From contig CAZSUT010000001.1 in assembly GCA_964610095.1 (NCBI GenBank), forward strand, positions 626 to 64,625: 64,000 bases of DNA, read 5' to 3'. Below, piece by piece: positions 3,970-50,451 of this stretch. Under the pieces are notes generated by a model. The model was not told the origin of the DNA and ran no database searches. It saw nothing but the letters and a program-made list of their open reading frames with translations. Position numbers and translations under genes: made by a program. Within the stretch, counting starts at the first letter, position 1; every line of letters begins with the position of its first letter. This DNA comes from an uncultured Nitrospirales bacterium. GTDB lineage: Bacteria > Nitrospirota > Nitrospiria > Nitrospirales > NS-4.

Positions 3970-4804
3970 AGTCCCCTACTTTTCGAGCTACAAGAATGGT
4001 GCCACCGGCAATCCCATCATGTACAGCCTCCTCCTGGTAGAAAAGAGTGATAAGCCGCAAAAAGATACGCTTCCAGAACCGCTCGCCGCCGATCCGGCGC
4101 AAAACGCCAGACATAAAATAGAAGGTGCCGTCGTTCGTCCAGAAACCAGGAAAAGGGAATGGTTGCTCAAAAATTGATTCCAGGAATGTGATGAACCGAG
4201 CGGTGCGAGGACTGAGGAAGGGGTCAAACCCGATCGGCTCAAAGCCAGCCTGCCGAAATCGCTTCGTCCACTCTACCGGTCCGAACAGATTCAGGTGTGC
4301 CATTCTCTGATCGTGGGCGTCCACGATCCTGCGGCCTAGTTTAGGGAATCCTAGCGTGGAGAGGACACTATTCCAGAAATAGAGGGCCTTCCAGTTAGAA
4401 CTGGGCACCGTGGCGATAAGGGTCCCGCCAGGACGAAGTACCCGAGCCGCTTCCGTAAGGCACGCGTCAATAGCCCAAAGGTGTTCGACAACGCAGATGC
4501 CTAAGATGGATCCGAAAGTCCCTGCCCGGAAGGGAAGATGGCGGGCATCTCCTTGGACGACCTTTTTCATGAATAGCTTCGCCTTTGGCAGCGGGGAAGG
4601 ATCCACATCGATCCCGACGGATTCGACATCTCCCAAGAAAAGATGGTGGATCGCACCGTCCCCACACCCAAGGTCAAGGATAGGAGGTGAGCACAGAGCC
4701 TGATAGTGATAGACACCGCGCCACTCCAAAGCCCGGAAGAGGGCGAGTGATACCTTCCACGGATACAAGTCAACCAATGCATCAAGCCTTGGATCCTTAA
4801 TCAA
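3959..4804 (-). CDS. Class I SAM-dependent methyltransferase
   Basis: 281 aa. ILDLGCGDG motif I and LRPGGTL. TTG start overlaps the upstream stop (TTGA). Confidence 0.8.
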   Translation of the reverse strand: MIKDPRLDALVDLYPWKVSLALFRALEWRGVYHYQALCSPPILDLGCGDGAIHHLFLGDVESVGIDVDPSPLPKAKLFMKKVVQGDARHLPFRAGTFGSILGICVVEHLWAIDACLTEAARVLRPGGTLIATVPSSNWKALYFWNSVLSTLGFPKLGRRIVDAHDQRMAHLNLFGPVEWTKRFRQAGFEPIGFDPFLSPRTARFITFLESIFEQPFPFPGFWTNDGTFYFMSGVLRRIGGERFWKRIFLRLITLFYQEEAVHDGIAGGTILVARKVGDCER

Positions 4805-5718
4805 TGGGGATTCTTTTTCGCAAGAAGGCGGATCACGTCTGATTCACCCTTCACTCCTGCCTTGTAGAGTTCATTCGCATACCGGGCCGCTCTGACCAAC
4901 ACTCCGAAGACTGGGTTGGCCTTGTTCCGTTCATAGAATCGCCTGGCCCTGTCCATGCTCCCACACGCAGCGTTGAGGAGCCCTGTACCTTCCACTTCAC
5001 GGTGAGCCGAACAGACCTCGAATCCCCGCCCGACAAGAAGCCGCGTGAGTGTCCGTTCGCTGAAATAAAAGAGATGCTCCGGCACCTTTATGTGCGTCCA
5101 GTGATTCCCCTCGCGCTTGGCTGTTCCAGAGTCGATATCCGGAGTTTCAATCCATAGCAGGCCGCCTGCAACCAACCAGCCCTTGATCCGTTGCACCATC
5201 CTCACTGGATCTCGGAAGTGTTCGATCACGTGCTGCAGAGTCACCACATCAAACGACTCCAAGGGGAACACGACCTCTTCCAGTGGACCGGTCAGAATTT
5301 CCTGGCTGCCGTACCGTTCCCGGGCGTAGGCAGTCGCAAAACTCGACACGTCCGCTCCCGCGGTCTTCCACCCCCTGTCCCGAGCCGCCTTCAAGAGAAA
5401 ACCAGGGCCGCATCCTAGGTCGAGGAGCCGTCCTTTGCCTCCCCGCACTCGCTCAATCTCATCCAGAATCCCGTGGCAACTTTCGAGCCGTCGCACAATC
5501 CGCGCAGGATCGAGCACATTCTCCTGCCCTCTCTCCTTCACTGCACAATCACCCCGGTAATAGCCCTCCGCGTAAAGAAGATCGTCAGGACAGGCAGGCT
5601 GGGGATTGAGCAGGACAAGCGAACAGGTTGAGCACCGGTCCACCCCTTGTCCTGCAATCTCAAACAAGGTGCCGAGCTTCTGCGAACCGCACAGCGGACA
5701 GCATGAGAAACGTGTCAT
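4801..5718 (-). CDS. SAM-dependent methyltransferase with N-terminal zinc ribbon
   Basis: 305 aa. CPLCGS...CSTCS zinc ribbon, then LLDLGCGPGFLL motif I. Confidence 0.8.
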   Translation of the reverse strand: MTRFSCCPLCGSQKLGTLFEIAGQGVDRCSTCSLVLLNPQPACPDDLLYAEGYYRGDCAVKERGQENVLDPARIVRRLESCHGILDEIERVRGGKGRLLDLGCGPGFLLKAARDRGWKTAGADVSSFATAYARERYGSQEILTGPLEEVVFPLESFDVVTLQHVIEHFRDPVRMVQRIKGWLVAGGLLWIETPDIDSGTAKREGNHWTHIKVPEHLFYFSERTLTRLLVGRGFEVCSAHREVEGTGLLNAACGSMDRARRFYERNKANPVFGVLVRAARYANELYKAGVKGESDVIRLLAKKNPH

Positions 5719-7301
5719 CCGGATTTCCGTACGAGCACCCGCACCATTGGAAGATAATCGCTCAGCAGCTCCCGATCGTGATGATCAAGAACACCGGCCA
5801 CACGAATGGTAATGAGATACACAGTCACGTACAGAATAATACAGCTGACGAGCGCGAGCAACGCCGGTCCACGTTCAGCCTCCCCCACCCAGCCCGCCGC
5901 CCATCCGATGAAAAGCAGCGAAACGACGGCCGGAGGAAAGTTTAGAAGAAAAATACCACCCGCCTGGCGTAACTGGTCGCCCCACGACCGCTTAAAATCC
6001 CGGCAAAAGAGAACCAACAGATACCCATTGCTCAGGATGAGGGCCACCGTGGTTCCGATCAAGACACCCGTGTAACCAAATGGGAATATCAAAGCCAGGG
6101 ACAGCAGGAGGTTGAGTCCACCTTGGATCAAAGAAATCCGCATGAGAGGCCCCACCCACCCGATACCAGCACCGATGGTCGTCACCATTCCCATGCTCAC
6201 CACTGTCCAATACCCAGTCGAGAGCAACAGAATCGCCAGGTGGACATCAGACAACACGTGGCCAAGCCACACCTGAAGAATCAGATGAGCGGTAAGCCAG
6301 GTGCCGACCAGCGTAGGAACGCTCAAGAGAAGGAGACACTTCGTTCCCAGCTCAAATAGCATCCAGAGACGCCTTTGATCCTCTTTGCCGGCAAGCGCTG
6401 AAGCAGCCGGGAATATGGCTCCCAGCATGATCTGCGGAAGATCGTGCAGCAAGTAGGAGACCTTCGCCCCGAGATCGTAGAAAGTGACATATCGTAGCGG
6501 CACGAAGAGTCCAAGCAGAATCTTATCAGCCTGATAACTGACCAGCTGAGCGACTTGGGAGATCTGGAAACGAATTCCATACCCGAAGAGAGCCTTGATG
6601 GCCGCAAACCGAAGGTCCTGTCTCCTCCAGGCCAAAGCCGGGAAGGCGATCTTAGCTTGAACGGCGAGAAGAAGGAGTTGGAGCAGATACACGATGCATG
6701 CAATCGTCACCAACCCTAAGAGTCCCCACCCGAGGCGCAACACAAGGTACGATCCCAGAAGATTGGGAATGGACACGGCGATCAGAGTCAAATTAACCAG
6801 ATCCATCCGCTGAAACCCTTTCAGCAACCCATCAAAGAGGGAAACAAGGTTCATGAGGAAGAGGACGACGAGGCCGACCTGAAACGTCCGCGCGGCTTCG
6901 GAGCGGAGACCTTCTGGTATGTAAAAGAGGGAGGCGATCCATCCCACCACCGGCCAAAGCAACATGACGACAACGGCCCCTAGCGCGAGATAGAAGAAAA
7001 GCGCGCTGGCAAGAACTCGGTTGATCGACAACGTATCGCCTTTTGACTGGTATTCAGAAAAGTACTTTACAAGCGCGGAGCCCAATCCCATATCAAGCAA
7101 GAGGAAGTACTGGGTGAGGGACCAGAAGAGGGCCCAGACGGCGAAGCGATCCTGGCCAAGATAGGAAAGGATAAGCGGGGTCAGAAGCAGATTGGTAGAG
7201 ATAAGCCAAAGGCGTCCCACCGCATTAAAAGCGGTGTTCCGCAGAATTCGTCTCGAAATCGGAGCGTCCGGTTCGTTCAGCGTAAACACGTTACCTGGCA
7301 A
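5715..7301 (-). CDS. wzx: Oligosaccharide/polysaccharide flippase (MOP superfamily, Wzx-like)
   Basis: 528 aa with more than 10 predicted TM helices. N-terminus RRILRNTAFNAVGRLWLISTNLLLTPLILSYLGQDRFAVWALF is typical of polysaccharide biosynthesis flippases. Confidence 0.75.
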   Translation of the reverse strand: MPGNVFTLNEPDAPISRRILRNTAFNAVGRLWLISTNLLLTPLILSYLGQDRFAVWALFWSLTQYFLLLDMGLGSALVKYFSEYQSKGDTLSINRVLASALFFYLALGAVVVMLLWPVVGWIASLFYIPEGLRSEAARTFQVGLVVLFLMNLVSLFDGLLKGFQRMDLVNLTLIAVSIPNLLGSYLVLRLGWGLLGLVTIACIVYLLQLLLLAVQAKIAFPALAWRRQDLRFAAIKALFGYGIRFQISQVAQLVSYQADKILLGLFVPLRYVTFYDLGAKVSYLLHDLPQIMLGAIFPAASALAGKEDQRRLWMLFELGTKCLLLLSVPTLVGTWLTAHLILQVWLGHVLSDVHLAILLLSTGYWTVVSMGMVTTIGAGIGWVGPLMRISLIQGGLNLLLSLALIFPFGYTGVLIGTTVALILSNGYLLVLFCRDFKRSWGDQLRQAGGIFLLNFPPAVVSLLFIGWAAGWVGEAERGPALLALVSCIILYVTVYLITIRVAGVLDHHDRELLSDYLPMVRVLVRKSG

Positions 7302-7338
7302 CCAGCCGATCCGAAACGGTATGCCTCTCCTGGCTCAT

Positions 7339-8109
7339 TCAAAAGAGTGGCCTCCTAGCATAAACAAGGAGCTGGAGGCACATCCTGTTTAAAACCGGCG
7401 TACGAGCCCAGCGATGGTCAAGCTGAATGAGTAAGCGAGTAATCGCAACATTCCAAGGGACATAGCGCAATAGGGGAAGGTGGTCCGGGAACCCTGCCAG
7501 GACATAGGCGCTGTAGCCGAACCGTTCCATCCGTATCTCCCGGAAGCCGGTCGTCTCGATGAGGTTCCGGAGCTGATCAGATAGGAAACCTTCATCCTCC
7601 TCATCGAACTTGTCGGAGAAGCGGTACATCAGCCTCCGCACCGTCCGTACAAACCACCAATCGTTGCTGGGCTCAGAGAGGATAAACTCTCCACCGGGAC
7701 GTAAAACCCGGTGTATTTCAGCAAGCGCAGCCCGACGGTCCGGAACATGATGCAGCACCCCCCGGCAGATCACGAGGTCAAAGGAGGCGCTCCCAAGCGG
7801 CAGGGCTGAGCCATCGCCCACAACCAGCGGCGTGTCTAGCTTCCGCGCTGCCTGCATCATCTCCTGCGAAACATCGGAGCCAACCACGAAGCGATACTTC
7901 TGCGTGAGGTCAGCAAGCAGGACGCCGGTTCCACATCCAAGCTCCAAAACTCGATCCGCCTGCATATGGTTCATTGCGAAAAGCGCTCGGTTCCACTCCT
8001 TCTGGAACACTTGGGAAAAAGCATCGCGGTAACGGATCGCGTAATTGCCCACAAGGCGCTTGTGTAATTCTTTTTCACGCTCGAAGCGGCTCTCTCTCCG
8101 TGAGATCAT
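7339..8109 (-). CDS. Class I SAM-dependent methyltransferase
   Basis: 256 aa. VLELGCGTGVLL motif I and LRPGGEF. ATGA overlap with the upstream GT2 stop. Confidence 0.8.
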   Translation of the reverse strand: MISRRESRFEREKELHKRLVGNYAIRYRDAFSQVFQKEWNRALFAMNHMQADRVLELGCGTGVLLADLTQKYRFVVGSDVSQEMMQAARKLDTPLVVGDGSALPLGSASFDLVICRGVLHHVPDRRAALAEIHRVLRPGGEFILSEPSNDWWFVRTVRRLMYRFSDKFDEEDEGFLSDQLRNLIETTGFREIRMERFGYSAYVLAGFPDHLPLLRYVPWNVAITRLLIQLDHRWARTPVLNRMCLQLLVYARRPLF

Positions 8110-8981
8110 CTTCTTCTCACGATGAGATCTGCCAAAATTCCGATGGCCGCCGTCAAAAAGGTCCCAACGAAAAGGATGATGGAGGTGTCGGCCAGATTGG
8201 CGAGCACGAAGACGTCGTAGCTCATGCGGGCGAGGGTCAGAAGCAACATGAAGAGACTCGCCGGCAAAAAGATACGCAACGGGTTGAAATACGTGATCGT
8301 GCGAACGATCAGAATCAAAAAATAGAGCGCGTCGGTAGCTCTAATCTTTGACCGCCCGACCCTCTTCTGGTAGTTGATCGGGACAAAACGGACGCCAAGC
8401 CCCTCTGAGAGAAAGGCCAGCGTGAGCGTCGTCGTGAAGGAGAACCGGTTGGGGAGGATGTGGATATACCGTAACGCGGCCTCCCTCCGGAACGCGCGCA
8501 GGCCAGAATTGAGGTCTGGAATCTTCCGCTCCGAAAGGTACTCCGCAAGCCTTCTCAACAGCCACTTCGCAGGTTTCCGAAAAAGCGGCATGCTCACATC
8601 TGGACCGGTCCTGGCCCCGACCACCATCTCAGTCCCCTCATCCCACCCATCTAGTAGGCGGGGAATCTCTTCCGTCGGATAAGTCCCGTCCGCGTCTATA
8701 ATGAGAGTAATGGGAAACCGCGCGGCATGGATCCCAGTCTTCAGGGCGGCGCCATAACCTCGGTTTTCCTCGTGTCGCAGGACTCGCACCTTCTCCGCAT
8801 ACGCGTTGATCCTTTCGCGCGTTCGATCGGTCGAACCATCATCGACGAGGAGGAGCTCATATAGCATTCCCGTCCGTCCCATTTCAGAAAGGAGCCGTTC
8901 AATGAGGGAACCAATCCCTCCCTCCTCGTTATACACAGGAACGATGATGCTGACGCCTGCAGCCTTACATTCCGTTCCCAA
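8106..8981 (-). CDS. Polyprenol-phosphate glycosyltransferase (GT2, ArnC/GtrB/DPM1-like) with C-terminal TM helices
   Basis: 291 aa. VSIIVPVYNEEGGIGSLIERL...LLLVDDGSTDRT...ENRGYGAALKTG, plus two hydrophobic C-terminal helices. Confidence 0.8.
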   Translation of the reverse strand: MGTECKAAGVSIIVPVYNEEGGIGSLIERLLSEMGRTGMLYELLLVDDGSTDRTRERINAYAEKVRVLRHEENRGYGAALKTGIHAARFPITLIIDADGTYPTEEIPRLLDGWDEGTEMVVGARTGPDVSMPLFRKPAKWLLRRLAEYLSERKIPDLNSGLRAFRREAALRYIHILPNRFSFTTTLTLAFLSEGLGVRFVPINYQKRVGRSKIRATDALYFLILIVRTITYFNPLRIFLPASLFMLLLTLARMSYDVFVLANLADTSIILFVGTFLTAAIGILADLIVRRR

Positions 8982-8984
8982 GTT

Positions 8985-9830
8985 CTACCCCTTCCAAGAA
9001 GACGCAATGGCAAGTAGACAGATCCTGTCATACGGAATACCATGTTGGATTTCTTGGCGAAACACTTGATAACCACACTGCTTCAGCAGATATGGATAAT
9101 TGTGATTGAACGCTATACTTCCACGAGGTCGTGAGACCACTTCGCTGGCCGCACTTGATTCAGCGAGCGCAAAGATGGCTATCGCGGCCGGACTGACTTT
9201 CTCTCGAACGCGACGAAATAATTCCTCCAACTCTTTCTGAGTAAAAAACTCAAACGTTTCACTCGCCACAAAAATAGTTCCTTCGTCGCATTGGCATTGA
9301 ATCCAATCGGTAATTTCTCCATGAACAAACTCTAATGCTGTGCCTTGATAGGTTCGCTGATCCTCCAGAATCTGTTCCTTGTTCAAATCGACACCGACAA
9401 ACCGTTTGACGGAGGGGAACTGCCTAGATAGATCATGCAAAAACATCCCGTTTCCTGTCCCTATTTCACAAATAGTCCGATACTGTCCAGAGGAGGCAAG
9501 AAGATCTGATATCTGGCGGGCAAGGAAGCGTCGTGGACGTAGAAATTCGCTGTTATGCGCGTCTTGCTCATCGTATCTTTCTTTCGTAAACTCATGCCAC
9601 CTTTTACCCGGCGTGGCCCCCCAGAACTCTTCTCTGCAGCGTCTTCTAAACTCCTCCTCCGTGTTCGACGAGTAATACTGTCTATTCAATTCAGCACGGA
9701 TAATATCGGCAATTACACCCGCGGGGCCTTTCCCTGTAAAAAACTCGTCGCGGACACGCGATTGATAAGACTCGGGTACGATCTTGACAATACACCGACC
9801 GACATACACATGCGGCCGCGTGCTGAACAT
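8985..9830 (-). CDS. SAM-dependent methyltransferase (start re-called)
   Basis: ICEIGTGNGMFL motif I. The ORF-track start 10034 would overlap the upstream gene by 176 nt, so I use the first ATG (9830) after the upstream stop at 9859. The region is visibly more A/T-rich. Confidence 0.65.
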   Translation of the reverse strand: MFSTRPHVYVGRCIVKIVPESYQSRVRDEFFTGKGPAGVIADIIRAELNRQYYSSNTEEEFRRRCREEFWGATPGKRWHEFTKERYDEQDAHNSEFLRPRRFLARQISDLLASSGQYRTICEIGTGNGMFLHDLSRQFPSVKRFVGVDLNKEQILEDQRTYQGTALEFVHGEITDWIQCQCDEGTIFVASETFEFFTQKELEELFRRVREKVSPAAIAIFALAESSAASEVVSRPRGSIAFNHNYPYLLKQCGYQVFRQEIQHGIPYDRICLLAIASSWKG

Positions 9831-9858
9831 CAAATGCCAGGTCTTCTTGAGAATCTGT

Positions 9859-11139
9859 TTAACGATGCAGAGATTCCTGTCCAAGACGCACACCCAGATG
9901 ATTGAGCGCTGCAGACCCGAACACGCACCACATCGGTTCAAGCACATACCCGTAACGTCGTATTGCGTGGACGAGCCCATAGACGACCAGCACGTAGGCA
10001 AACACCCCGATAAAAGGAAAAACCGTCGCATCAACCCGATACCTTCTGATCAAAAACAGGATCGAGACGCTTACAAACAGCGCATGCACCCCAAATGCTG
10101 ACCAAGCAAGGATCGGATGTACGCCCTGCAAGACGGAGCTTCCTGGTGGCGGCGAGACAAGGAGTATCAAGTCTCGGTTGAGAACGAGCATAAGATAGGC
10201 AATCGGGCGATCCCAAATTCGATCAGTGAGATCCTTCCTGTCTTTCGCCCTCCGCTCATCTAGTAGCAGGTGCGCATTGGTCTGCTCCCGTTGCCGGAGA
10301 AACCCCCTCGCCCTCTCCCGCTCTTCTTCAAGCTTGCGCATGCTAGAAAGAGTCCACCAGAAATCTCCGGAGAAAACCGGGTAATGGCCAAACATGATGG
10401 TGAAGTGCTGGTAGTCCTCTGCTTCAGCTTTGCTCTCTTCCGGAAGCAGGTTGTTGCGAATATGCCAAGGAAGCCACAGCGTCATCGCTACGAGGAGAAC
10501 ACCCACAAGCCGCTGCCAATGTGGACGGAGTCGCCGATCCAGGAAACTGAGCGACAAAAGGGCCAGCGGCAGGAAGATGTAGACAGGGCTCGTCAAAAGA
10601 AGCAGCCCGTAAAAGCACCCCGCCAGGATAAAGTAAACATTTCGGTCTTCTCTGGATCCTCGGACAAAGCAATAGATCGCACCAAGCAAAATTGGGATGA
10701 GTAGGTTCTCTCGATGTAGGCTCGTGACAATCTCATAAGATGGGTACAACGTGAATATACCCGCAGCCAAGAGCCCGACCGTTTCCGAGAATAACATCCG
10801 CCCTAGAGAGAAGATGAGAAAAACCAGGGAAGCGTTGAGTAGCGCCTGGGCGTACCAGACCACTCGGTAATCCTTCCCTAAGATCGCATACACCAGGGCA
10901 ATAAAGGCGGGATACACCGGCGGGAGGTACGTGGTCGGATGGCCGGGGTCTACGGCATAACCCTTTGCCTCAATGAGGTTCACAGCGATCCGATGATTAT
11001 CCAGTTCGTCCCGTTGGGGTGGTTCGGCAAGCCAGTGGATTGCGGCCACACGTACGACAACGGCCACCAGGAACAGAAGGATAAGCCATCGGAGTAATGC
11101 CCGTCTCGGAGAGGAAGTACCAGGCGAGGCCCCGCTCAT
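9859..11139 (-). CDS. GT-C fold membrane glycosyltransferase (ArnT/PMT-like, GT39/GT83-type)
   Basis: 426 aa, polytopic. First loop PPQRDELDNHRIAVNL carries a DE motif, followed by multiple TM helices, as in the dolichyl/undecaprenyl-phosphate-sugar dependent transferase family. Confidence 0.7.
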   Translation of the reverse strand: MSGASPGTSSPRRALLRWLILLFLVAVVVRVAAIHWLAEPPQRDELDNHRIAVNLIEAKGYAVDPGHPTTYLPPVYPAFIALVYAILGKDYRVVWYAQALLNASLVFLIFSLGRMLFSETVGLLAAGIFTLYPSYEIVTSLHRENLLIPILLGAIYCFVRGSREDRNVYFILAGCFYGLLLLTSPVYIFLPLALLSLSFLDRRLRPHWQRLVGVLLVAMTLWLPWHIRNNLLPEESKAEAEDYQHFTIMFGHYPVFSGDFWWTLSSMRKLEEERERARGFLRQREQTNAHLLLDERRAKDRKDLTDRIWDRPIAYLMLVLNRDLILLVSPPPGSSVLQGVHPILAWSAFGVHALFVSVSILFLIRRYRVDATVFPFIGVFAYVLVVYGLVHAIRRYGYVLEPMWCVFGSAALNHLGVRLGQESLHR

Positions 11140-11172
11140 CGGAGGCTCTCTACTCCAGATCGTCCAAGTCCG

Positions 11173-12675
11173 CTAGCCTCCTTGCCTTCTGGTACGATCC
11201 ATGGCGCTCTGTCGCCATTGGGGTCTGGTTCTGGCCGTCGGATACATAATGGGACTTTCCACCTCGTGCAAGCCTTCCGCAGCCTGAGCCTCTTGCTGAG
11301 CTCTCAACTTGTTACTGGTGGCGTGGTCTAGGTCTATCTGAGCGAGCGCATGACTTCTGGCTATCAATGCCGCAATAAGCCAAAACGGCTCCATGATCCT
11401 GACAATGATAAAAGTATTGGCTCCGACGGCATGCACGAGCAAGCCCACAAACCCAAGCAAAAACCCAAGCGCTACCCCCCGATTAAAAGGATCCACGGAT
11501 TCCTTGTACGTGGTCCTGCCAAGACGAAAGAGCGACCAAAGAAGGTAGGCAAAGCACACCGTTCCCAGGAGCCCGGTCTCTACCAGCACCCTTGGGTACA
11601 TAGCGTCCATGAAGTAGGGTCCTCCGGTTACCCCGGCCCCCCAAAGCGGAGCCCGGTAAAAGTATTTTAGCGACTTCTGCCATGATATGAGCCGCTCCGA
11701 GGTGGACGTATCCACCCTGACACCACCAAGCTTGATCTGACCCTCTTCTGGCGCCTGTGTGAGGGTAAACATAATCCGATCCTTTACGGCATCGGGGGCC
11801 CACCACGGAGAGAACAGCATACCCATCAACACGAATGCCACCACCACTGGTTTCCGGTAACTCAGCAGTCCCACCACCGCAAGAGCAACCACTAGAGCCG
11901 CCAAGAACGAAGCGCGCGAAAGGGTCGCCATTAGTGCAAGGCTTCCGGTTCCCAGAAGGATCAGGAACGGAAGGCGCGTGGGCACTGCTCCTGTAGTCAA
12001 CAAAAGTCCTGTCACAATCGCCAGCATGAACACAAGGTACCCACCCAGCGTGTTGGGCTCACCCTCACTCCCCTCGAATGGAGCCGACGCCCGTGCTCCG
12101 CTGGGAATCTGCGCGATAGCGAAGAGCGAGACCAGAAAACAGGTGACCAGGCTCGCGATCACCAGGGACTTGGCTTGCTTCTGACTGCTCACGGCGCTGA
12201 CGACCATGAAGTAAATAAAAACGTATTCGTAATACTTCATCATGTAGAAAAACCCGGTCATGGGTTTCACGCGTCCAGCCAGCACGCCGATCAGAGTCGC
12301 CAACACAGAAGCCGCAATATAGAGCATAATTGGCCCGTTCAATGGAGTCCTCGTGAACGGGGAGCTTTTAAAGAGCGCCATCTTCGCTAACCAGGCAAAC
12401 CCTATGACAACCAGAATAAAATCGTCGAAACGAAGGCTGATTCCTCGTCCTGCCGTTGCCCCAGCTAACGTTCCACCGACCAGAAATTCAGGGCCCAGGA
12501 GCATGGAGAAGACCAGCAGATAGAGGCTGATCGTGGTGGACACAAACGCCACCACCAAGACGAGGGTACCCAGAAAGATAGTCAAACGGAACGAGGTGTC
12601 ACTGGAAAAAATGAACAGGGACAGCGCAGCGGCTAGGGCTAACGGAATCACAACTATGAGCCCTTTAGGCTGCAT
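11173..12675 (-). CDS. O-antigen ligase / Wzy-like polymerase family membrane protein
   Basis: About 500 aa with more than 10 TM helices. LALMATLSRASFLAALVVAL is Wzy_C-like. I prefer ATG at 12675, preceded by GAGGAG 9 nt upstream, over the ORF-track TTG at 12726. Confidence 0.65.
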   Translation of the reverse strand: MQPKGLIVVIPLALAAALSLFIFSSDTSFRLTIFLGTLVLVVAFVSTTISLYLLVFSMLLGPEFLVGGTLAGATAGRGISLRFDDFILVVIGFAWLAKMALFKSSPFTRTPLNGPIMLYIAASVLATLIGVLAGRVKPMTGFFYMMKYYEYVFIYFMVVSAVSSQKQAKSLVIASLVTCFLVSLFAIAQIPSGARASAPFEGSEGEPNTLGGYLVFMLAIVTGLLLTTGAVPTRLPFLILLGTGSLALMATLSRASFLAALVVALAVVGLLSYRKPVVVAFVLMGMLFSPWWAPDAVKDRIMFTLTQAPEEGQIKLGGVRVDTSTSERLISWQKSLKYFYRAPLWGAGVTGGPYFMDAMYPRVLVETGLLGTVCFAYLLWSLFRLGRTTYKESVDPFNRGVALGFLLGFVGLLVHAVGANTFIIVRIMEPFWLIAALIARSHALAQIDLDHATSNKLRAQQEAQAAEGLHEVESPIMYPTARTRPQWRQSAMDRTRRQGG

Positions 12676-12753
12676 CGTACGCCACTCCTCAGCTAGGCCA
12701 CGGGATGGAAAACGGACTGATGCCAAATTGAACGGGCCCTGAAGTTGCCAGGA

Positions 12754-14907
12754 TCAGGACGATGAATAGCGATAGTACTGGTATTGGTGGTAATCAGGAG
12801 AAAATTCGGCGCTCACGTTGCTGAGCACCACCCCCACGATATGGGCCTGGGCATTCTCAAGGAGAGTCTTCGCTCGCAGCAATGGCGTCCGTCCAATTTT
12901 ACCAACTTGGTAGACCAAGACGACACCGTCGACTTTGGGACCGACCAGTACGGCATCAGCGACAGGCAGGATGGGTGGACAGTCAATCAAGACGAGATCA
13001 TAGTTTTCTTCACAGGCAGCGATCAGATCCACGAAGCGTTGAGAGTTGAAGAACTCGGACGGGTTGGGCGGCAGATGTCCGCTGGTGATGATACTCAGGT
13101 TGTCCACGCCGGGAGCGCTCAGGACCTGATCGAATCCCAGCTTGCCCAGCATCAGATCCGGAGCAGTCTGTACCACGTCCTGCCACTGCGCATTCCCGAC
13201 CAGAACCTCACTTAGGCCAGGCTCCCGCTTGAGCCCGAGCCGGCTGTGCACGGCCGGCTTTCTGAGGTCCGCGTCCACCACCAAGATCCGCCGTCCATCC
13301 TGCGCGATCGTGATAGCCAAGTTGATAACCGTCGTGGTCTTTCCTTCGCCGAGCCCGGCGCTGGCGAACGACAGGCTTTTGACCGTCCGGTCTAAGCAGG
13401 CGAATTGAAGGTTGACCTTCAATGACCGGTACCCCTCCGCGACCACACCTTTAAGATCGAACAACGGCGAGAGCCGCGACAGCAATTCCATGGATTCAGA
13501 ATCGAGCGTTTCAGGAAAGACCTTTTTAATCTCCTGCTCAACTTCCTTGTGGTCTACCCGCGGGATGACTCCGAGGACTGGGACTTTCAGGAACTCTTCA
13601 ACACCCTCAATCGTGCCGATAGAGGTATCAAAGGATTCTCGGACAAAGGCCAGGACGAATCCCAGCAACACGCCAATCAGGGAGCTCAGCAAGAGATTGA
13701 GGGTGGCTTTGGGCGCGTTCTTGGGTGAGCCCGGGGTGACGGCCGGTTCGATAATCGAGACTTCCTCGATGCGCTCAGCGCCCCGGATCAAAAACTCCTG
13801 GTGTTTCTGCTTCAAATTGGCATACAGGTCTCCATTGATCTTCACCTCGCGCTCCAGGCTGGCCTGCTCCAGGGCGGCCTTCGGCAAGGTGATGTACCGT
13901 TCCTTGAATCGGCCAATGGACTCTTTAATGGCGTTTTCCCGATCGGTCATCGTCCGCAGCTTGGACTCAAGCTCCTTGATCATTTCCTGCTTGACGCTCA
14001 GGATTTTGGCATCAAGCTCAACGACCAGGGGATGCTTGGGCATGTAGTTGATCAACAGGGCGGCGCGATCCGTATTCAGATCGACCAGCTTCTGGTTCAG
14101 TTTGGCGATCAGGGCCTGCACATCGTCGGAAAAGACACGCACGGGGCTGGCATCAGGGAGTGCCTCATTTGCTTTCAAGAGCCGGAGCTGGTTCGACGCT
14201 TCGCGTTTGACCTGTCCTAGCTTCTCGAGCTCGGCATCCAGGTGACTATAATTCTCCAACGCTTGGCGCGCTTCTTCGTTTAAGAAGACCTTTCCTTCAT
14301 GTTCCCGAAAGACAAGTAAGGCCTGCTCCGATTTTCTCAGCGCCTCTTCCACCGTCTTGAGCTGGTCCTCCACGAACCGCTTGGCGTCGTCCACTTGCCG
14401 GTTCCGGCTTGTAATGTTTTCTTCACGATAGCCCTCGGCGACCGCGTTGGCCAACCGTGCCGCAAACTCGGGCTCACCCGATGTGACGCTAATATTGAGG
14501 ATATTGGCGCTCTCCTCCTTGCTCACTGATACCAGGCTCTTTAACTCGTAGATCTTGGCAAGGGAGTCCGGAGAGGTACGCGCCTCATTGTTGTCGATCT
14601 CTTTCGCGACTACTCCTAGCTTCTTCGCCGCACGTAACATGACAGAAACACTCCGAATGACTTCCGCCTGCGTGGTCATGGCGTTGCCCTCCGAGGGAGC
14701 GGAGAGCACTTCCGTCAACAGACCCGACATCGAGGTGGAGCGATCATACTTCACTCTGGCAGAAGCTTCGTAGGTCGGTGTGGGGCCAAAGACCTCGGTG
14801 GTGAAAAAGGTGAAGCCCGCGACCAGGAAAACTGTGAGGGCGATAATCCACTTCCGCTTGCGGAGGATCAGCCAATAGTCCCGGAGATTCAGTTCGTACT
14901 GGGCCAT
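12754..14907 (-). CDS. wzc: Polysaccharide co-polymerase fused to BY-kinase (Wzc/GumC-like tyrosine autokinase)
   Basis: 717 aa. N-terminal Wzz-type TM plus coiled coil; Walker A SAGLGEGKTTTVINLA..VVDADLRKP; Tyr-rich tail SPDYHQYQYYRYSSS. Confidence 0.9.
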   Translation of the reverse strand: MAQYELNLRDYWLILRKRKWIIALTVFLVAGFTFFTTEVFGPTPTYEASARVKYDRSTSMSGLLTEVLSAPSEGNAMTTQAEVIRSVSVMLRAAKKLGVVAKEIDNNEARTSPDSLAKIYELKSLVSVSKEESANILNISVTSGEPEFAARLANAVAEGYREENITSRNRQVDDAKRFVEDQLKTVEEALRKSEQALLVFREHEGKVFLNEEARQALENYSHLDAELEKLGQVKREASNQLRLLKANEALPDASPVRVFSDDVQALIAKLNQKLVDLNTDRAALLINYMPKHPLVVELDAKILSVKQEMIKELESKLRTMTDRENAIKESIGRFKERYITLPKAALEQASLEREVKINGDLYANLKQKHQEFLIRGAERIEEVSIIEPAVTPGSPKNAPKATLNLLLSSLIGVLLGFVLAFVRESFDTSIGTIEGVEEFLKVPVLGVIPRVDHKEVEQEIKKVFPETLDSESMELLSRLSPLFDLKGVVAEGYRSLKVNLQFACLDRTVKSLSFASAGLGEGKTTTVINLAITIAQDGRRILVVDADLRKPAVHSRLGLKREPGLSEVLVGNAQWQDVVQTAPDLMLGKLGFDQVLSAPGVDNLSIITSGHLPPNPSEFFNSQRFVDLIAACEENYDLVLIDCPPILPVADAVLVGPKVDGVVLVYQVGKIGRTPLLRAKTLLENAQAHIVGVVLSNVSAEFSPDYHQYQYYRYSSS

Positions 14908-14920
14908 CGGATCACGTGCC

Positions 14921-15808
14921 CTATCGCGGCGACACAGTGGTGATGCTTGGGATTTGGACAGGTTGGATATTGTTCCGTTGCAGAAAATCCGTCAGTTCCT
15001 TCGGGCTCAACGTCTGCGTGCCCAGAAGCAGGAGGAGTGTCGAATTAATTTTGGCCAGGAAGGCATTCCAGTCAGCGATGCGCTGGCGCGGCACGAACAC
15101 AATATCGTTGTCCTTCAACACGATATCCTGGCTCCGGTCGCCATACTGAAAGAACCGCTGGAGGTCCACGGGAATGACCTCTGGTTTCCGGGCATCTCCA
15201 CGGATGACCCGAATGTCGTCCAACACCGCATAGTCATTGAACCCGATCTGCGCGAGGAGTTGGCCCACCGTCGTCTTTCTGTCCAACTCCGCCATCTTCG
15301 CCGCGCCCGCCGCTAAGAATGTGCCGGTCCCCGGTTGCCCGAATCCCCCTCCCAATAAAAAGACCCTTTGCTTGCGAAGCAGAAGCTTCTTCTGCTTTAT
15401 CGAGAGCTCTACGCGGGGATTGCGGATGATCGTAGCCGCTTGCTCGGTGATCCGAGCTTCGGCTTCGGGGACCGTCAGGTTCTTCACATCGATGTCCAGC
15501 GAGCCCACATAGACCCGGCCATTATCCCGAACCGTCACGAGCGAGCGCTCCTCCCCCGAGCCTCGCCGGACCACCACTTCCAAGCTGTCCCCCGGTTCTA
15601 TTTTGGACAGTCCCCCGTCAGAGACCTCTTCAACGTACAGATCGTCCGGCTTGACCGGACGGGCAAAGGGGGAATCGCCGGACGCGTTGTACGGAACGGG
15701 CGAGCAGGCGAACGACATACCCAGCATTACGAAAAGCGCGCAGTGCAGGCCGACGGCTCTGGAGACAGAAGCGAGTATTCTGACGCACCCTGCCAACGCC
15801 ATTCTCAC
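14921..15808 (-). CDS. wza: Polysaccharide export outer-membrane lipoprotein (Wza-like, Poly_export/SLBB)
   Basis: 295 aa. Lipobox-like LGMSFAC; IEPGDSLEVVV Poly_export motif. The start overlaps the HD-GYP stop. Confidence 0.8.
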   Translation of the reverse strand: MRMALAGCVRILASVSRAVGLHCALFVMLGMSFACSPVPYNASGDSPFARPVKPDDLYVEEVSDGGLSKIEPGDSLEVVVRRGSGEERSLVTVRDNGRVYVGSLDIDVKNLTVPEAEARITEQAATIIRNPRVELSIKQKKLLLRKQRVFLLGGGFGQPGTGTFLAAGAAKMAELDRKTTVGQLLAQIGFNDYAVLDDIRVIRGDARKPEVIPVDLQRFFQYGDRSQDIVLKDNDIVFVPRQRIADWNAFLAKINSTLLLLLGTQTLSPKELTDFLQRNNIQPVQIPSITTVSPR

Positions 15809-16833
15809 TGAACGTCCTGGACTACCTCAGTGACGTGGACCAACGACGACTTGCTGAGATCAAGCGTGCGTGTCTCTTTCGGCGAGAGACCATGCGCCTC
15901 CTTGTGCACCTTCACGACCGGCCTGAGCGGATACTGCGGGTTCAACTCGACGACTTCCGCGGTCTCCCCCGTGTTCAACCGGACGTGCGTTCCCAACGGA
16001 AACACGGAAAACTGCTGGATTAGGCACTTCAACGTCCTCGTCGAGAACGACGTCTTTTCCTTCGTCACTAACTCCCTGACCGCTTCATGTGGGAGGAAAC
16101 GCTTCCGGTACGGACGCGAGTGAAGGAGCGCCTCGAAGGTGTCGGCGAGTCCGATGACCTGCGCGAACTCATGAATCTCCTCCCCCTTGAGCCCACGCGG
16201 ATACCCCTGCCCGCCCAACCGCTCGTGCTCCTGAAGGACAAGCTCCGCGATCCAGTCGGCGTCCGGGCACAGCCTTCGGAGCGCCTGGGCGCCCGACTCG
16301 GGGTGTCGCTTGATGAGGGTCCGCTCCTCGTGGCTCAGCGGGCCCGGCTTGTTCAAGATCTCCTCGGGGATCAGGCACATCCCGACATCATGAAGGATCG
16401 CCGCGACTCCCAAGCGCATGAGATCCTGCCTCGAATACTGCAGCCCCATTCCGATCTTGATCGCGATGATGGCCGTGTTGATCAAGTTCGTGATGATTAG
16501 CCCGCCTCGCTCGGCAGTGATGGCCTTCACCAGCAGCCGGTCGCCTTGAGCGAGTGAATTGACGAACCCGTCCACTACTTGGGTGACGCCACCCAATGAA
16601 AACGTGTCGCCCGAGCGGACAGCACCGAGGATGGAGGGCAATTCCATCTCTGCCTGGGCATGCCATAGATCCGCATCCAGAACCAACTGGGCCTGCTGCT
16701 CCACGGAAACCTGGGCAGCGGTCGTATCGACGCTCTTGAATGAGGCTTTGTTCGGTTCCCCTTTCGGGCGAGGGCCAGGTCCTCCCTCCTGGGGTGAGCC
16801 TTCATTCCGCACGAGTTCATTGAGACGCGCCAT
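15805..16833 (-). CDS. HD-GYP domain protein (putative c-di-GMP phosphodiesterase) with unassigned N-terminal region
   Basis: 342 aa. AAILHDVGM and HERLGGQGYPRGL motifs. I recognise no domain in the N-terminal ~130 aa. Confidence 0.8.
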   Translation of the reverse strand: MARLNELVRNEGSPQEGGPGPRPKGEPNKASFKSVDTTAAQVSVEQQAQLVLDADLWHAQAEMELPSILGAVRSGDTFSLGGVTQVVDGFVNSLAQGDRLLVKAITAERGGLIITNLINTAIIAIKIGMGLQYSRQDLMRLGVAAILHDVGMCLIPEEILNKPGPLSHEERTLIKRHPESGAQALRRLCPDADWIAELVLQEHERLGGQGYPRGLKGEEIHEFAQVIGLADTFEALLHSRPYRKRFLPHEAVRELVTKEKTSFSTRTLKCLIQQFSVFPLGTHVRLNTGETAEVVELNPQYPLRPVVKVHKEAHGLSPKETRTLDLSKSSLVHVTEVVQDVQ

Positions 16834-16839
16834 GATTGA

Positions 16840-17637
16840 CTACTGCGCTTCCTTGAACGCCTTTTTCACCACATCAGGCCCGATCTGTTTGCACCGCTCC
16901 ATGAATCCGATTAACAACGCCAGATCCGCAATCGTATTGACTCTCCGCGGAACCCCGCCGCTGGCCTCATAGATCGCCGGTATGGCCTCCGGCATAAAGA
17001 CCATCTTGGCGGCACCCGCTGCCTGCATCCGGAAATCGACATAGTCGCCTACTTCTTCGGCAGAGAACGGTGTCAGGTGATAGCGTATCACAATCCGTTG
17101 AGATAGTTGCACGAAAGCATCGATCTTGGTACTCAATTCAGGCTGCCCCAGCAGGATAAAGGTGAGTAGAAAGCGATCATTGAGCTGAAAATTCAAAAGC
17201 AGTCGCAATTCCTCGAAAATCCCAACATCATGAATGGCCTGGGCCTCGTCCACGACAAGAACGGTGTCCCTGCCCTTATTCATATTCTGCAGCAGGTGAT
17301 CGTTCAGGGCATGGACCAAGTCCAGCTTGGTTCCATTCTGATTGACACCGAGCTGGTAGAGAATTTCCTTAATGAAGTCAGTTACTTCAAAGCTGGGATT
17401 GGCTATCAGCGCCAAATCATATCGTTCGTTGGAGAGATGTTGGATCAGGGTACGACTCAACAGGGTTTTCCCGCAGCCAATCTCCCCTGTCAACATTATG
17501 GCCCCTTTCCTCGCCTCTACCCCGTAAAGAAGGCGATGGAGCCCTTCCTCATGCCGTGTGGAGGGGAAATAGAAACGGGGGTCGGGAACGTTTTCGAAGG
17601 GAGCCTTTTTTAGCCCCCAGTAGTCTTCGTAATGCAA
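16840..17637 (-). CDS. ExeA-like AAA+ ATPase (EPS-locus/PEP-CTERM-type secretion ATPase family)
   Basis: Walker A LTGEIGCGKTLL and VLVVDEAQ Walker B. The ORF-track GTG start (17694) abuts a -10 box, so I prefer TTG at 17637, giving MHYEDYWGLKKAPF, an ExeA-like N-terminus. The start remains uncertain. Confidence 0.7.
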   Translation of the reverse strand: MHYEDYWGLKKAPFENVPDPRFYFPSTRHEEGLHRLLYGVEARKGAIMLTGEIGCGKTLLSRTLIQHLSNERYDLALIANPSFEVTDFIKEILYQLGVNQNGTKLDLVHALNDHLLQNMNKGRDTVLVVDEAQAIHDVGIFEELRLLLNFQLNDRFLLTFILLGQPELSTKIDAFVQLSQRIVIRYHLTPFSAEEVGDYVDFRMQAAGAAKMVFMPEAIPAIYEASGGVPRRVNTIADLALLIGFMERCKQIGPDVVKKAFKEAQ

Positions 17638-17694
17638 TGTTTTTTCTCGGGTAACCCCTTTATGTCTAAGGTAAACCCTTACACTGCCGGCCAC

Positions 17695-17723
17695 ACTATA
17701 TCATTGAAAACTGAGAGTGTCAA
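17695..17723 (-). promoter_or_regulatory. Near-consensus sigma70 promoter for the polysaccharide operon
   Basis: Minus strand reads TTGACA (17723-17718) - 17 nt - TATAGT (17700-17695). The -35 box overlaps the comEC stop codon (17720-17722). Confidence 0.55.
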
Positions 17724-20296
17724 GAAACATCGAGTAAAAATAAGGAGTTATCGCAGCTAGCAGATGAACCCAACCATCTTTTGAGGTTTCGCGCTTCACT
17801 TTCCTCCTTCCGCCTGTCTCCTCTACTCCCCAAGACAACCCTCTTGAACTGACGACCTGACTGGCAGTTCGCCTGAAGTCCGAATGGGGTGCCGATGACC
17901 GAGACAGCGCCATGTCGATCGGTGCGGAGCAGCGGGATGCCAAGCCGGGCATAGGCTTCCGTCATGGTGGGAGATGGGTGCCCATAGGCGTTCGCGTGGC
18001 CGACTGAAACCACTGCCAGCTGTGGATGCACGGCCCGGAGGAACGGCTCGTACACGGATCCCTTAGCCCCATGGTGGGGCACCTTCAGCACAGCTGTCTC
18101 CAGCCGTTCAGATAGCTGGGTCAGCCTGCTCTCGGCTTCTGATTCGATATCCCCGGTGAAGAGAAAGGCGGCTGACCCGCAGACCAAGCGCAAGACGACC
18201 GATCGATTGTTCAAGCGTGCTCCCTCAGCCTGTGCTGTGCCAATTCCCTCGGATGCGTCCGGATTGAGCACGCGAGCCTGACAGCTTCCTAGCGCCAGGG
18301 CTCTGTCGGCAGCGGAGACGGCCCGGACATCCACTTGGCGTTCGGTCACGATGCGCTCGAGTCGTTGAAGGAAGGCGGCTTCGCGTGCCACGCCGTTCGT
18401 CCAGAGTTGCCCCACGTCGAACTTGCTCAGAACAAAGGCCAGGCCGCCGACGTGATCCAGCTGAGGGTGCGTGGCCACGACCACATCAAGCCGCCGAATG
18501 CCTCGATCCCAGAGCACCGGCGCGATCACAATGCGTCCCGCATCATAGGCGTCGGTTGCGCCTCCTCCATCAATGAGCATGGCGCGGCCATCCGCCGTCT
18601 CGACCAAGGCAGCATCCCCCTGCCCCACGTCGAGGAACGTGACCCGGAACGACCCCGCAGCCGGCAGATCACGCGGCGACCAGACCCAGAGCAGCAACAT
18701 CCCCCCAGCCAACACTCCGGCGAGACGACCAGTCCCACGCCGCCACCAGAGCAATGCGGCCCCGAGCAGCAGAAAGAACCCGGCCATTTGCCAGAGCGGC
18801 GGCGAAGCGACCCTGAGCTCAGCGCCAGGCACAGCAGCGAACGTCTGCACGATCCACACGAACACCTCCAGCAGGGGACGCATCACGGCGGCGCCGACCA
18901 ACTCCCCTCCTGTTCCGCTCAACAGGGTCGCCAGACACACCAGCAGCCCGACAGGCAGCACGATGAACCCGACAAACGGGACGACCAGCAGATTCGACAG
19001 CCCTCCGACCCACGCCAGCTGATTGAAATAGGTCGCCACGAGGGGAGCGGTTGCCAGAGTGACGACCAAGCTCACGAGCAGGACCTCCACCGTTCCAGCC
19101 TTCACGGTCTCCCACGTCCTGCGTTCTCGGGAAGCACCGAGAATCATCTCCTGGTCACGCTGGCGACGGATCTTCGTCAGCATGACGATGACCAGCACCG
19201 AGAGGAACGACAACTGGGATGAAATGTCGAACGGCGCCAGGGGGGCCCACCCCACAATGACCACGAGCGCCAGCGCGAGGCCGTACCCGATGCTGTGGCT
19301 TCGGCCTACCAGCACGGCAGCGAGGGCAACAAGGGTCATGATCAGTGACCGGACCGTTGCCACTTCTGCGCCACCCAAGAGGGCGTAGCCTGTGACTGGC
19401 AGGATCGTCGCGGCTGCGGCCACGCGCGTGGCCGTCGTGCGCCGGCTCAGGCGCAGCACCCACCGCGGCGGGAGCGCCAGCAACACCCGGTGTACTCCCC
19501 AGAATACCACGACCCCGATCAACCCCAAGTGCGATCCCGAGATCGAGAGGATGTGCGTAGTACCGGACGCCATGAACGCATCCCGGATGTCCTGGCTCAG
19601 GTAACCGCTTTCCCCGGTCACCAGAGCCAGGTAAATCCCCGCAATCGGATCCTCCAGTGTCCGGAGTGCCGCGTCACGAATCCGGGCGCGCCCTTGATCT
19701 ACTGCGGCCATCAACGAAGAAAACCCGTGCGCCAGAATCCTGAGCCCGGTTCCATCACGATGCAACGTGACGCTTCCGACCGCGTGGACGCCGGCACGCC
19801 GCAGATGCGCGCCGTAATCGTAGCCGGCAGGGTTCCACAGTCCCCTGGGCGGATAGAGGCGCGTCGTGAACTCGATCACATCGCCGACGACTAAGGGCGG
19901 GACCGCGCCGCGGACCGTCAGCCTGATTCGGCCATCGACCGGCACCGTCCGATTCGGCAGGGCCAGTCGCTGGACGGATACGATGGCCACAGCACGATCA
20001 GGCCCGAAACGGACCGGCTCTTCGACCACCCCGATTACATCGACCTTGTGCGAGCCGGCCGCTCGGATCCAGGCAGGCGGTTCGGCCTTCATCTGCGCCA
20101 GCGCGGCGCTCGCCAAGCCGGACAGCAAGACCCCGAACACCAGGCAGCCGAACCCGGGGGAGCATCGGCCCAATGAGGACAGCCACAGGACGCTGCCGAG
20201 GATCAGCACGACGAGGCTGGCAATGGAAAAGGGGAAGTACGCGACGCCTGAACCGAGGAAAACTCCGAGGAGCAGCGCGCACGACAGGACAGCCAA
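17720..20296 (-). CDS. comEC: DNA internalization competence protein ComEC/Rec2
   Basis: 858 aa. Polytopic competence domain plus a C-terminal metallo-beta-lactamase domain (VTFLDVGQGDAALVET, HPQLDHVGGL). Confidence 0.9.
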   Translation of the reverse strand: MAVLSCALLLGVFLGSGVAYFPFSIASLVVLILGSVLWLSSLGRCSPGFGCLVFGVLLSGLASAALAQMKAEPPAWIRAAGSHKVDVIGVVEEPVRFGPDRAVAIVSVQRLALPNRTVPVDGRIRLTVRGAVPPLVVGDVIEFTTRLYPPRGLWNPAGYDYGAHLRRAGVHAVGSVTLHRDGTGLRILAHGFSSLMAAVDQGRARIRDAALRTLEDPIAGIYLALVTGESGYLSQDIRDAFMASGTTHILSISGSHLGLIGVVVFWGVHRVLLALPPRWVLRLSRRTTATRVAAAATILPVTGYALLGGAEVATVRSLIMTLVALAAVLVGRSHSIGYGLALALVVIVGWAPLAPFDISSQLSFLSVLVIVMLTKIRRQRDQEMILGASRERRTWETVKAGTVEVLLVSLVVTLATAPLVATYFNQLAWVGGLSNLLVVPFVGFIVLPVGLLVCLATLLSGTGGELVGAAVMRPLLEVFVWIVQTFAAVPGAELRVASPPLWQMAGFFLLLGAALLWWRRGTGRLAGVLAGGMLLLWVWSPRDLPAAGSFRVTFLDVGQGDAALVETADGRAMLIDGGGATDAYDAGRIVIAPVLWDRGIRRLDVVVATHPQLDHVGGLAFVLSKFDVGQLWTNGVAREAAFLQRLERIVTERQVDVRAVSAADRALALGSCQARVLNPDASEGIGTAQAEGARLNNRSVVLRLVCGSAAFLFTGDIESEAESRLTQLSERLETAVLKVPHHGAKGSVYEPFLRAVHPQLAVVSVGHANAYGHPSPTMTEAYARLGIPLLRTDRHGAVSVIGTPFGLQANCQSGRQFKRVVLGSRGDRRKEESEARNLKRWLGSSASCDNSLFLLDVS

Positions 20297-50261: not shown

Positions 50262-50451
50262 AGACCCCCTTTCACCAATGACGACATCCGACCAATTCCG
50301 CCCCCGTGCGTAAGGGGCGGCCGCTATGATGCAGGTTCGTATAGCATAGTTGGTAGGAGAAAATCCAGCCTCTTCCCGCGGTTGCGAGGGTCCAGCAAGC
50401 CGGGGCACACCCCGCCTTGAAGTTGCGTCTGCTGCCGATTACAATTCTGCC

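Follow-up and report, generated by a model that had tools for sequence, protein, structure and literature searches.

Control of matrix polysaccharides by cyclic di-GMP (c-di-GMP) is well understood for synthase-dependent systems, such as those for cellulose, Pel and alginate. Receptors for this nucleotide are built into exopolysaccharide (EPS) operons, as is the case for PelD, BcsA-PilZ, BcsE and Alg44, while HfsJ serves the Caulobacter holdfast pathway and PdeK and DgcC provide local signalling at the E. coli cellulose synthase. Wzx/Wzy systems with an outer-membrane polysaccharide export (OPX) protein and Wzc are very common, and their known control is mostly transcriptional. Here, we describe an HD-GYP protein encoded between an ExeA-like ATPase and the export genes of a Wzx/Wzy-type EPS cluster, in a 64,000-nt stretch of DNA from an uncultured Nitrospirales bacterium (contig CAZSUT010000001.1, positions 626 to 64,625; ‘the window’ in the following). 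As in the above receptors, nucleotide sensing would here be hard-wired into the polysaccharide machinery for post-translational control. Yet, whereas those receptors have PilZ, degenerate GGDEF, GIL or glycosyltransferase folds and act mostly in synthase-dependent systems, the window combines an HD-GYP fold with a Wzx/Wzy pathway comprising OPX and Wzc, and with an AAA_22 ATPase as the constant partner.

Among described HD-GYP proteins, the Bd1817 family (including PA4108, VC2497 and Borrelia PdeB) has a DUF3391-HD-GYP architecture, with a DUF3391 region of four beta-strands, two long helices and an S-helix; the survey by Galperin and Chou that defines the family also lists inactive HD-GYP proteins that act through protein contacts (bioRxiv 10.1101/2021.11.05.467447). 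In the adhesin system of Desulfovibrio vulgaris, the HD-GYP protein DvhD (9RBZ) binds c-di-GMP without metals and is a pure receptor (PMC13090378). DvhD was the best structural match of the window protein, and its gene lies in the very operon that specifies the surface machinery under its control, which is adhesin proteolysis as opposed to EPS export in the window. Unlike the window protein, which is soluble and keeps the HD dyad and most metal ligands, DvhD sits in the membrane, includes a PAS domain and has a fully degenerate site (HD replaced by SQ, HH by MN). With PmGH (4MCW), PA4781 (4R8Z) and V-cGAP3 (5Z7C), the window protein shares sequence, fold, the HD dyad, H177, H203, D231, the GYP motif and an RxxK-like motif, but it lacks their GAF or REC sensors and possesses an extra C-terminal beta-barrel. 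Its likeness to Bd1817 spans 247 Foldseek columns (TM-score of 0.52, normalised to the query) and includes the helices ahead of the core, which are homologous to the helical half of DUF3391. In contrast to the Bd1817 family, the DUF3391 beta half is absent from the window protein and a conserved 9-residue peptide and disordered linker are present instead; its N116 and E202 at ligand positions, its EPS locus and its neighbouring ATPase set it further apart.

We find that the window protein has the fold and motifs of an HD-GYP domain, is substituted at two of its metal-ligand positions, is encoded within an EPS operon and stands in reciprocal synteny with the ATPase and export genes across phyla. 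Judged from its sequence and those of its relatives, the conserved role is more likely to lie in sensing nucleotides or in scaffolding at the Wzx/Wzy export machinery than in c-di-GMP turnover.

The original prediction had assigned the whole of 15805-17694 to the HD-GYP gene. This span holds two minus-strand open reading frames (ORFs): an ExeA-like P-loop ATPase at 16840-17637 and, at 15805-16833, the HD-GYP protein of 342 aa. The close packing noted at the outset can be read directly from the sequence: the TAG of the ATPase is followed by 6 nt (TCAATC) and then by the HD-GYP ATG, and the HD-GYP TGA overlaps by 4 nt (GTGA) with the GTG that opens the wza-like ORF, for which an alternative ATG lies 2 nt past the stop. 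This next gene (14921-15808, minus strand) encodes a 295-aa OPX polysaccharide export protein that matches Pfam Poly_export, and TIGR03027 below the cut-off of that model. It is followed by a 717-aa Wzc-like PCP-2a/BY-kinase (12754-14907, minus strand) with Wzz, GNVR and P-loop kinase domains and a C-terminal tyrosine cluster (DYHQYQYYRY). A sigma-70-like promoter at 17695-17723 on the minus strand (TTGACA-17 nt-TATAGT with a TG extension; 11 of 12 matches) overlaps the stop codon of the upstream ComEC gene, is the only strong site in 10500-18500 and likely marks the start of the EPS operon. Given this one strong promoter, the 6-nt gap and the 4-nt overlap, a single, compact transcription unit seems to hold the genes for the ATPase, HD-GYP, OPX and Wzc.

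That the protein is a genuine HD-GYP member, as had been proposed from the motifs HDVGM (residues 148-152) and HERLGGQGYP (203-212), was borne out by Pfam (HD_5 at residues 123-261, E 5e-30, plus Pfam HD), by PDB profile matches with E-values from 1e-30 to 5e-12 (V-cGAP3, PmGH, PA4781, DvhD and Bd1817) and by Foldseek, which returned a probability of 1.0 for five HD-GYP structures, DvhD, PA4781, PmGH and Bd1817 among them. An AlphaFold2 model built from 37 homologues (mean pLDDT 80.5, pTM 0.75) comprises helices at residues 37-74, 81-96 and 99-106, a helical core at ~107-274 and a five-stranded beta domain at 283-339. The catalytic motifs, which had been thought to fill the C-terminal ~200 aa, fall within this central core (residues 107-274, at 16012-16515 on the minus strand), and a separate beta domain of 68 aa comes after it. 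H148-D149 and G210-Y211-P212 are invariant, and R240-P-Y-R243 represents an RxxR variant of the RxxK-type motif.

We mapped the metal-ligand positions to PmGH by profile alignment, combined with the constant distance of 32 residues that separates the first His from that of the HD dyad. Accordingly, PmGH H189 corresponds to N116, H221 to H148, D222 to D149, H250 to H177, H276 (the first His of the HHE motif) to E202, H277 to H203 and D305 to D231, so that two of the seven positions depart from the full His/Asp set. The possibility that careful alignment might reveal a loss of catalytic residues, raised in the original prediction, was thus realised in part, N116 and E202 being substitutions and the other five ligands being kept. 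The alignment of N116 is supported by EPS-linked homologues from other phyla, which carry the canonical His of an HS-x-x-V motif in this column. N116 and E202 were invariant across 26 Nitrospirota species and four metagenomic relatives, and are therefore selected for rather than products of decay. GYP, R240 and R243 were likewise invariant or nearly so in the window's clade.

An acidic residue at the position of PmGH E185 marks a third metal site, and the binuclear class stops at pGpG, as laid out in the domain survey (bioRxiv 10.1101/2021.11.05.467447). The window protein has L112 at this position (L, V, P or Y in its clade); a third metal site is therefore not expected, and the protein would at best be a binuclear-type enzyme that stops at pGpG. 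Such an active local phosphodiesterase, which would convert c-di-GMP to pGpG beside the export machinery and, by lowering the local signal, act as a brake or feedback on EPS, seems possible yet rather unlikely to us. In its favour, the HD dyad, H177, H203, D231, GYP and RxxR are intact, Asn116 and Glu202 could chemically serve as metal ligands and experience strong purifying selection, the missing Glu fits the binuclear, pGpG-ending class of that survey, and some linked relatives (6/43) keep H116 and differ by the E202 change only. Against it, neither of the two substituted first-shell ligands is shared by any characterised active HD-GYP protein compared, and substitutions have clearly disabled most linked relatives, which nonetheless occupy the same position in the locus.

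The extent of this disablement became apparent from the relatives themselves. The canonical ligand set HHDHHHD was found in none of 43 EPS-linked genomic homologues and in two of 38 ATPase-adjacent metagenomic ones, 24 of the latter 38 carrying at least one substitution unable to bind metal. In one linked clade, the HD dyad is changed to ID, FD or LD, GYP to GFP and R240 to Pro, making these homologues almost certainly pseudoenzymes, as judged from their sequences. This clade (loci L096, L099, L103, L105, L106, L111, L114 and L129) has the N-terminal peptide MVRMSDLVR, and each of its members lies directly upstream of Wzc. Another linked clade combines H177R with E202V and a change of H203 to Y, N or C, and a few linked members (L126, L135 and L148) are nearly unrecognisable at the ligand positions. 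As for a likeness to the DvhD-type receptor, the window protein retains HD, with EH at the position of HH, and many of its syntenic relatives have lost HD or both H177 and H203. Degenerate members still keep the fold, the motifs of the C-terminal barrel, often the N-terminal peptide, and the neighbourhood of ATPase and export genes. Since canonical ligands are nearly absent from linked relatives with the same locus position, hydrolysis would not be what holds the gene there. The repeated loss of metal ligands, with fold, C-terminal domain, N-terminal peptide and neighbourhood retained, supports a receptor or sensor function, and catalysis by the window protein itself appears doubtful.

The same losses could be taken one step further, to a pseudoenzyme that is independent of nucleotides altogether and whose HD-GYP fold would serve as an adaptor or assembly factor joining the ATPase to Wzc/OPX. 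Several linked clades have lost putative nucleotide contacts along with their metal ligands (GFP and R240P, with the three nearly unrecognisable members as extremes), and the N-terminal peptide and C-terminal barrel, both likely to make protein contacts, are the best-kept accessory features. Nevertheless, GYP, RxxR and the five ligands are invariant in the window's clade over 43-93% identity, which would be hard to explain for a ligand-free protein, and we regard this explanation as improbable for the window.

We next turn to gene order, for which we collected the 7-kb neighbourhoods of HD-GYP homologues from one genome per species, with phylum names as given by the record labels. Among the 37 best species-level loci, 35 had the ATPase and/or OPX, Wzc or Wzy within 7 kb; of the two exceptions, one was truncated and one had none of these genes. 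Nine phylum labels were represented: Nitrospirota, Desulfobacterota, Methylomirabilales, Nitrospinota, Brocadiaceae, Omnitrophica, Latescibacterota, Neomarinimicrobiota and Pseudomonadota. The linkage persists in relatives down to about 30-40% identity, and in metagenomic contexts at 44-61% identity HD-GYP is followed by OPX, Wzc and Wzy, while the ATPase may be present or absent. Only 4/43 more distant loci were linked, from Gemmatimonadota, Spirochaetota, Bacillota and Oceanospirillum, and in those members of the four groups that were scanned or read, the N-terminus is of the DUF3391 or REC type instead. In a neighbour-joining tree of the core, the linked proteins form coherent clades, and their sequences place them as a distinct HD-GYP subfamily living in EPS loci.

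The association also held in the reverse direction. Synteny seeded from the ATPase yielded 35 informative metagenomic loci (at least 1.5 kb on both sides), in 24 of which HD-GYP adjoins the ATPase, with gaps mostly of 10-350 nt. Adjacency was seen in 19 of 21 loci at an ATPase identity of at least 44% and in 5 of 14 below this value. Gene order is hence kept in relatives, an outcome that the original prediction had proposed to check by co-occurrence, and the position of HD-GYP between ATPase and export genes is not accidental.

Two arrangements occur. In Nitrospiraceae, the order is ComEC-HDGYP-OPX-Wzc-Wzy, and no ATPase gene adjoins it. The window's clade has its ATPase adjoining HD-GYP, as do metagenome-assembled genomes (MAGs) that bear the labels Desulfobacterales, Syntrophales, Methylomirabilales, Nitrospinota, Brocadiaceae, Omnitrophica, Latescibacterota, Neomarinimicrobiota and Pseudomonadota. 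The pair in these ATPase-adjacent loci often sits amid GT4, DegT, PIG-L, WbqC, OPX, Wzc and Wzy genes. Rearrangements include ATPase genes upstream or downstream of HD-GYP, and HD-GYP directly before Wzc with or without OPX. A Nitrospirae MAG harbors two tandem HD-GYP-Wzc pairs (locus L075, 3619-9821), an arrangement that points to Wzc as a functional partner. As a separate observation, the module is joined in five non-Nitrospirota loci (L015, L026, L027, L038 and L057) by a P-loop protein of cluster c33 that lacks Pfam matches, a radical-SAM protein and an NTP_transf_5 nucleotidyltransferase, a trio that resembles a peptide- or EPS-modification set.

These data also bear on the simplest alternative, a generic cytoplasmic phosphodiesterase that shares a transcript with EPS genes and is uncoupled from export. 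HD-GYP proteins are common and often lie beside unrelated genes, as this explanation would have it. It is disfavoured by a reciprocal, multi-phylum association that survives rearrangements, by the tandem HD-GYP-Wzc pairs and by the accessory elements that the subfamily has of its own, and we consider it very improbable.

We hold a similarly low opinion of a fourth alternative, in which the HD fold has been repurposed as a phosphohydrolase for a non-nucleotide substrate, for instance the phosphotyrosines of Wzc, replacing a missing Wzb or CpsB. The tyrosine cluster at the C-terminus of Wzc and the frequent position of HD-GYP directly upstream of Wzc would suit such a phosphatase; a low-molecular-weight protein tyrosine phosphatase (Wzb) motif was not found in the whole window, nor a PHP-domain gene in the locus; and the altered metal site could reflect a new substrate. 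This is pure inference, however, and GYP and RxxR, the nucleotide-binding motifs, are retained. Related loci of other phyla that carry a PHP gene in first position (cluster c27) still have HD-GYP, the metal site is wholly absent in many relatives, and we know of no HD-GYP protein phosphatase.

Taken together, we favour, at about even confidence, a reading of the window protein as a sensor or trigger enzyme, with HD-GYP as the nucleotide-sensing subunit of a two-protein regulatory module. This module would consist of the ExeA-like ATPase and HD-GYP; the two genes head the Wzx/Wzy operon and, by their packing, are coupled in transcription and translation to the OPX and Wzc genes. The HD-GYP core would bind a nucleotide, presumably c-di-GMP, which in the Nitrospirales lineage would be hydrolysed slowly or not at all, the protein serving as a trigger enzyme or receptor. 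Its nucleotide state might then be passed on to putative partners, namely the ATPase, the cytoplasmic kinase domain of Wzc or both, in a direction of control that is likewise putative, through contacts made by the tethered N-terminal peptide and the C-terminal barrel. As an outcome, EPS polymerisation and export would be gated post-translationally. The original prediction had suggested local nucleotide turnover coupled to export; reciprocal synteny supports the coupling, whereas turnover is doubtful with two ligands substituted. The cGAMP that it had named as an alternative finds no support in these data. It had further noted an HD-GYP protein between this ATPase and export genes as an arrangement not known to be described, and the literature searched for HD-GYP in combination with Nitrospira, PEP-CTERM, Wzc or ExeA contained no account of it.

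Several points weigh against the sensor reading. Its physical partners are named from gene order alone, and the ATPase cannot be the sole partner because it is not adjacent in Nitrospiraceae. Five of the seven binuclear ligands are kept and the Asn and Glu substitutes can both coordinate metals, so the window protein may be a competent phosphodiesterase with an altered metal site. The Tyr of GYP (to Phe) and R240 (to Pro) are changed in the ID clade, and nucleotide binding may not be universal across the subfamily. Finally, a motif scan revealed neither a diguanylate cyclase nor a second c-di-GMP gene in the window. More tentatively still than the sensor reading, we propose that the ATPase and this HD-GYP variant form a previously unrecognised, multi-phylum post-translational checkpoint on the Wzc/OPX complex, in which HD-GYP would have evolved from an enzyme into a c-di-GMP receptor or adaptor that docks via its N-terminal peptide and C-terminal barrel.

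The regions that might provide such docking flank the core on either side. In line with the prediction that the N-terminal ~130 aa lack a REC, GAF or PAS signature, residues 1-131 gave no Pfam match (these three and DUF3391 included), even at E <= 10. The region had been called an unassigned domain, a description that no longer applies, as it can be divided into three parts. The first is the peptide MARLNELVR (residues 1-9; 16807-16833, minus strand), which conforms to a conserved pattern, M-x-R-[LM]-[NST]-[DE]-[LI]-[IV]-[RK]. The strict pattern was present in 28 of 44 EPS-linked homologues from several phyla as compared to one of 40 unlinked ones, with near variants in several further EPS-linked homologues, and it recurred in 20/39 ATPase-adjacent metagenomic homologues. 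A low-complexity linker follows (residues 10-41; 16711-16806, minus strand), predicted to be disordered (pLDDT below 50 over residues 1-41) and ranging from ~10 to more than 100 residues among homologues.

The third part comprises three helices (residues 42-106; 16516-16710, minus strand) that share homology with the helical half of DUF3391 and with the S-helix in the Bd1817 family. Profile-profile comparison with hhalign aligned residues 53-102 with the helical half of DUF3391-type N-termini (probability 90%, E 1.6e-6), and the beta half is absent from the AlphaFold2 model. In more distant relatives with the C-terminal motifs in common, DUF3391 is complete (Pfam E 2.6e-23). On the basis of these comparisons, the N-terminal region is best described as a DUF3391 region minus its beta-sheet half plus a short peptide, and not as a new sensor domain. 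A resemblance of the peptide to strand 1 of DUF3391 (compare MKKIKVSDLKPGM) is suggestive by eye of a remnant of that strand; the hhalign alignment covered the helical part only.

At the other end, the AlphaFold2 models show a small five-stranded beta-barrel (residues 275-342, 68 aa; 15808-16011, minus strand). The segment 250-342 had no Pfam match at E <= 10, the domain had no PDB profile match at the same threshold, and Foldseek returned insignificant hits only, the best (E 0.15) being to Sm/SH3-like barrels. We had suspected a PilZ-like identity, for which Pfam, PDB profiles and Foldseek gave no evidence. P279, R304 and P305 of the barrel are conserved across the wider family, including members with DUF3391 or REC domains. 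The barrel is present in many DUF3391- and REC-HD-GYP proteins of other phyla (loci L045-L087), and it goes unmentioned in the sections of the HD-GYP domain survey considered here (bioRxiv 10.1101/2021.11.05.467447).

The P-loop ATPase has GEIGCGKT as Walker A and VLVVDEAQ as Walker B, and matches Pfam AAA_22 (E 8e-24). Its mechanical ORF extends to GTG 17694, but the true start is most likely TTG 17637, giving 265 aa: homologues are 265 aa long with N-termini MHYED or MYEEYWGL, the product from TTG 17637 is identical to a sequence in public gene calls, and GTG 17694 is unlikely as a start because the -10 box of the promoter ends at 17695, one base before it. The ATPase had been taken as a link to PEP-CTERM-type EPS loci. 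Its best NCBIfam match is indeed TIGR03015, the XrtA/PEP-CTERM-associated ATPase (E 8.7e-70, near full length), and like TIGR03015 proteins and ExeA/GspA it has an AAA_22 P-loop, here within an EPS locus. Yet its score of 235.2 bits lies below the curated cut-off of 324.5. An exosortase was not matched among the 16 locus genes by Pfam or among six of them by NCBIfam, the search being confined to the locus. The locus likewise held no PEP-CTERM protein, and a crude scan of the window for PEP at C-termini gave only an ORF at 49716-50408 (minus strand) that is HNH-endonuclease-like from its translation and not a PEP-CTERM protein. With the ATPase under the TIGR03015 cut-off and exosortase and PEP-CTERM genes not found in the locus, we rejected a PEP-CTERM/exosortase assignment of this locus. 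Compared to ExeA, the type II secretion assembly ATPase (ExeA/GspA), the window ATPase has neither a transmembrane nor a peptidoglycan-binding part.

The joint presence of genes for OPX, a PCP-2a/BY-kinase, a Wzy-type polymerase and a Wzx flippase makes the locus an ordinary Wzx/Wzy-type EPS cluster. Beyond Wzc lies a Wzy_C-family polymerase/ligase-like membrane protein identified by Pfam (11173-12726, minus strand), followed by the eleven remaining genes of the cluster (786-11139, minus strand), which include a PMT_2 GT-C enzyme, two GT2, one GT4 and one GT9 glycosyltransferases, four S-adenosylmethionine (SAM) methyltransferases and a Wzx-type flippase (Polysacc_synt/MatE). Upstream of the ATPase are ComEC, GlmM, FolP, FtsH, Hpt and TilS. 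The GC content is 52-57% in the EPS block and 60-65% in the housekeeping flanks, and the lower value leaves room for a horizontal origin of the cluster; the four methyltransferases suggest a heavily methylated polysaccharide. At 295 aa, the OPX protein is shorter than E. coli Wza (~380 aa), and Poly_export is its only domain above the Pfam threshold. It may fall in the class of short OPX proteins, which depend on a separate beta-barrel partner in the outer membrane (PMC9601211), and no such partner is evident in the locus. Two mechanical ORFs, 8985-10034 and 9859-11139, overlap by 176 nt; the downstream one has a methyltransferase domain only from residue 188, and its true start is probably much later.

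Conserved by label in Nitrospirota and eight other, mostly uncultured phyla, the HD-GYP/ATPase pair represents a testable candidate for direct control of Wzx/Wzy export. Its relatives form a series from near-complete to fully degenerate metal sites within one syntenic context, and this makes them a suitable system in which to follow the conversion of an enzyme fold to a receptor or pseudoenzyme. A practical interest lies in biofilm and granule reactors: aggregation there is governed by EPS production, and nitrification and nitrogen removal are the work of Nitrospira and anammox-type organisms.

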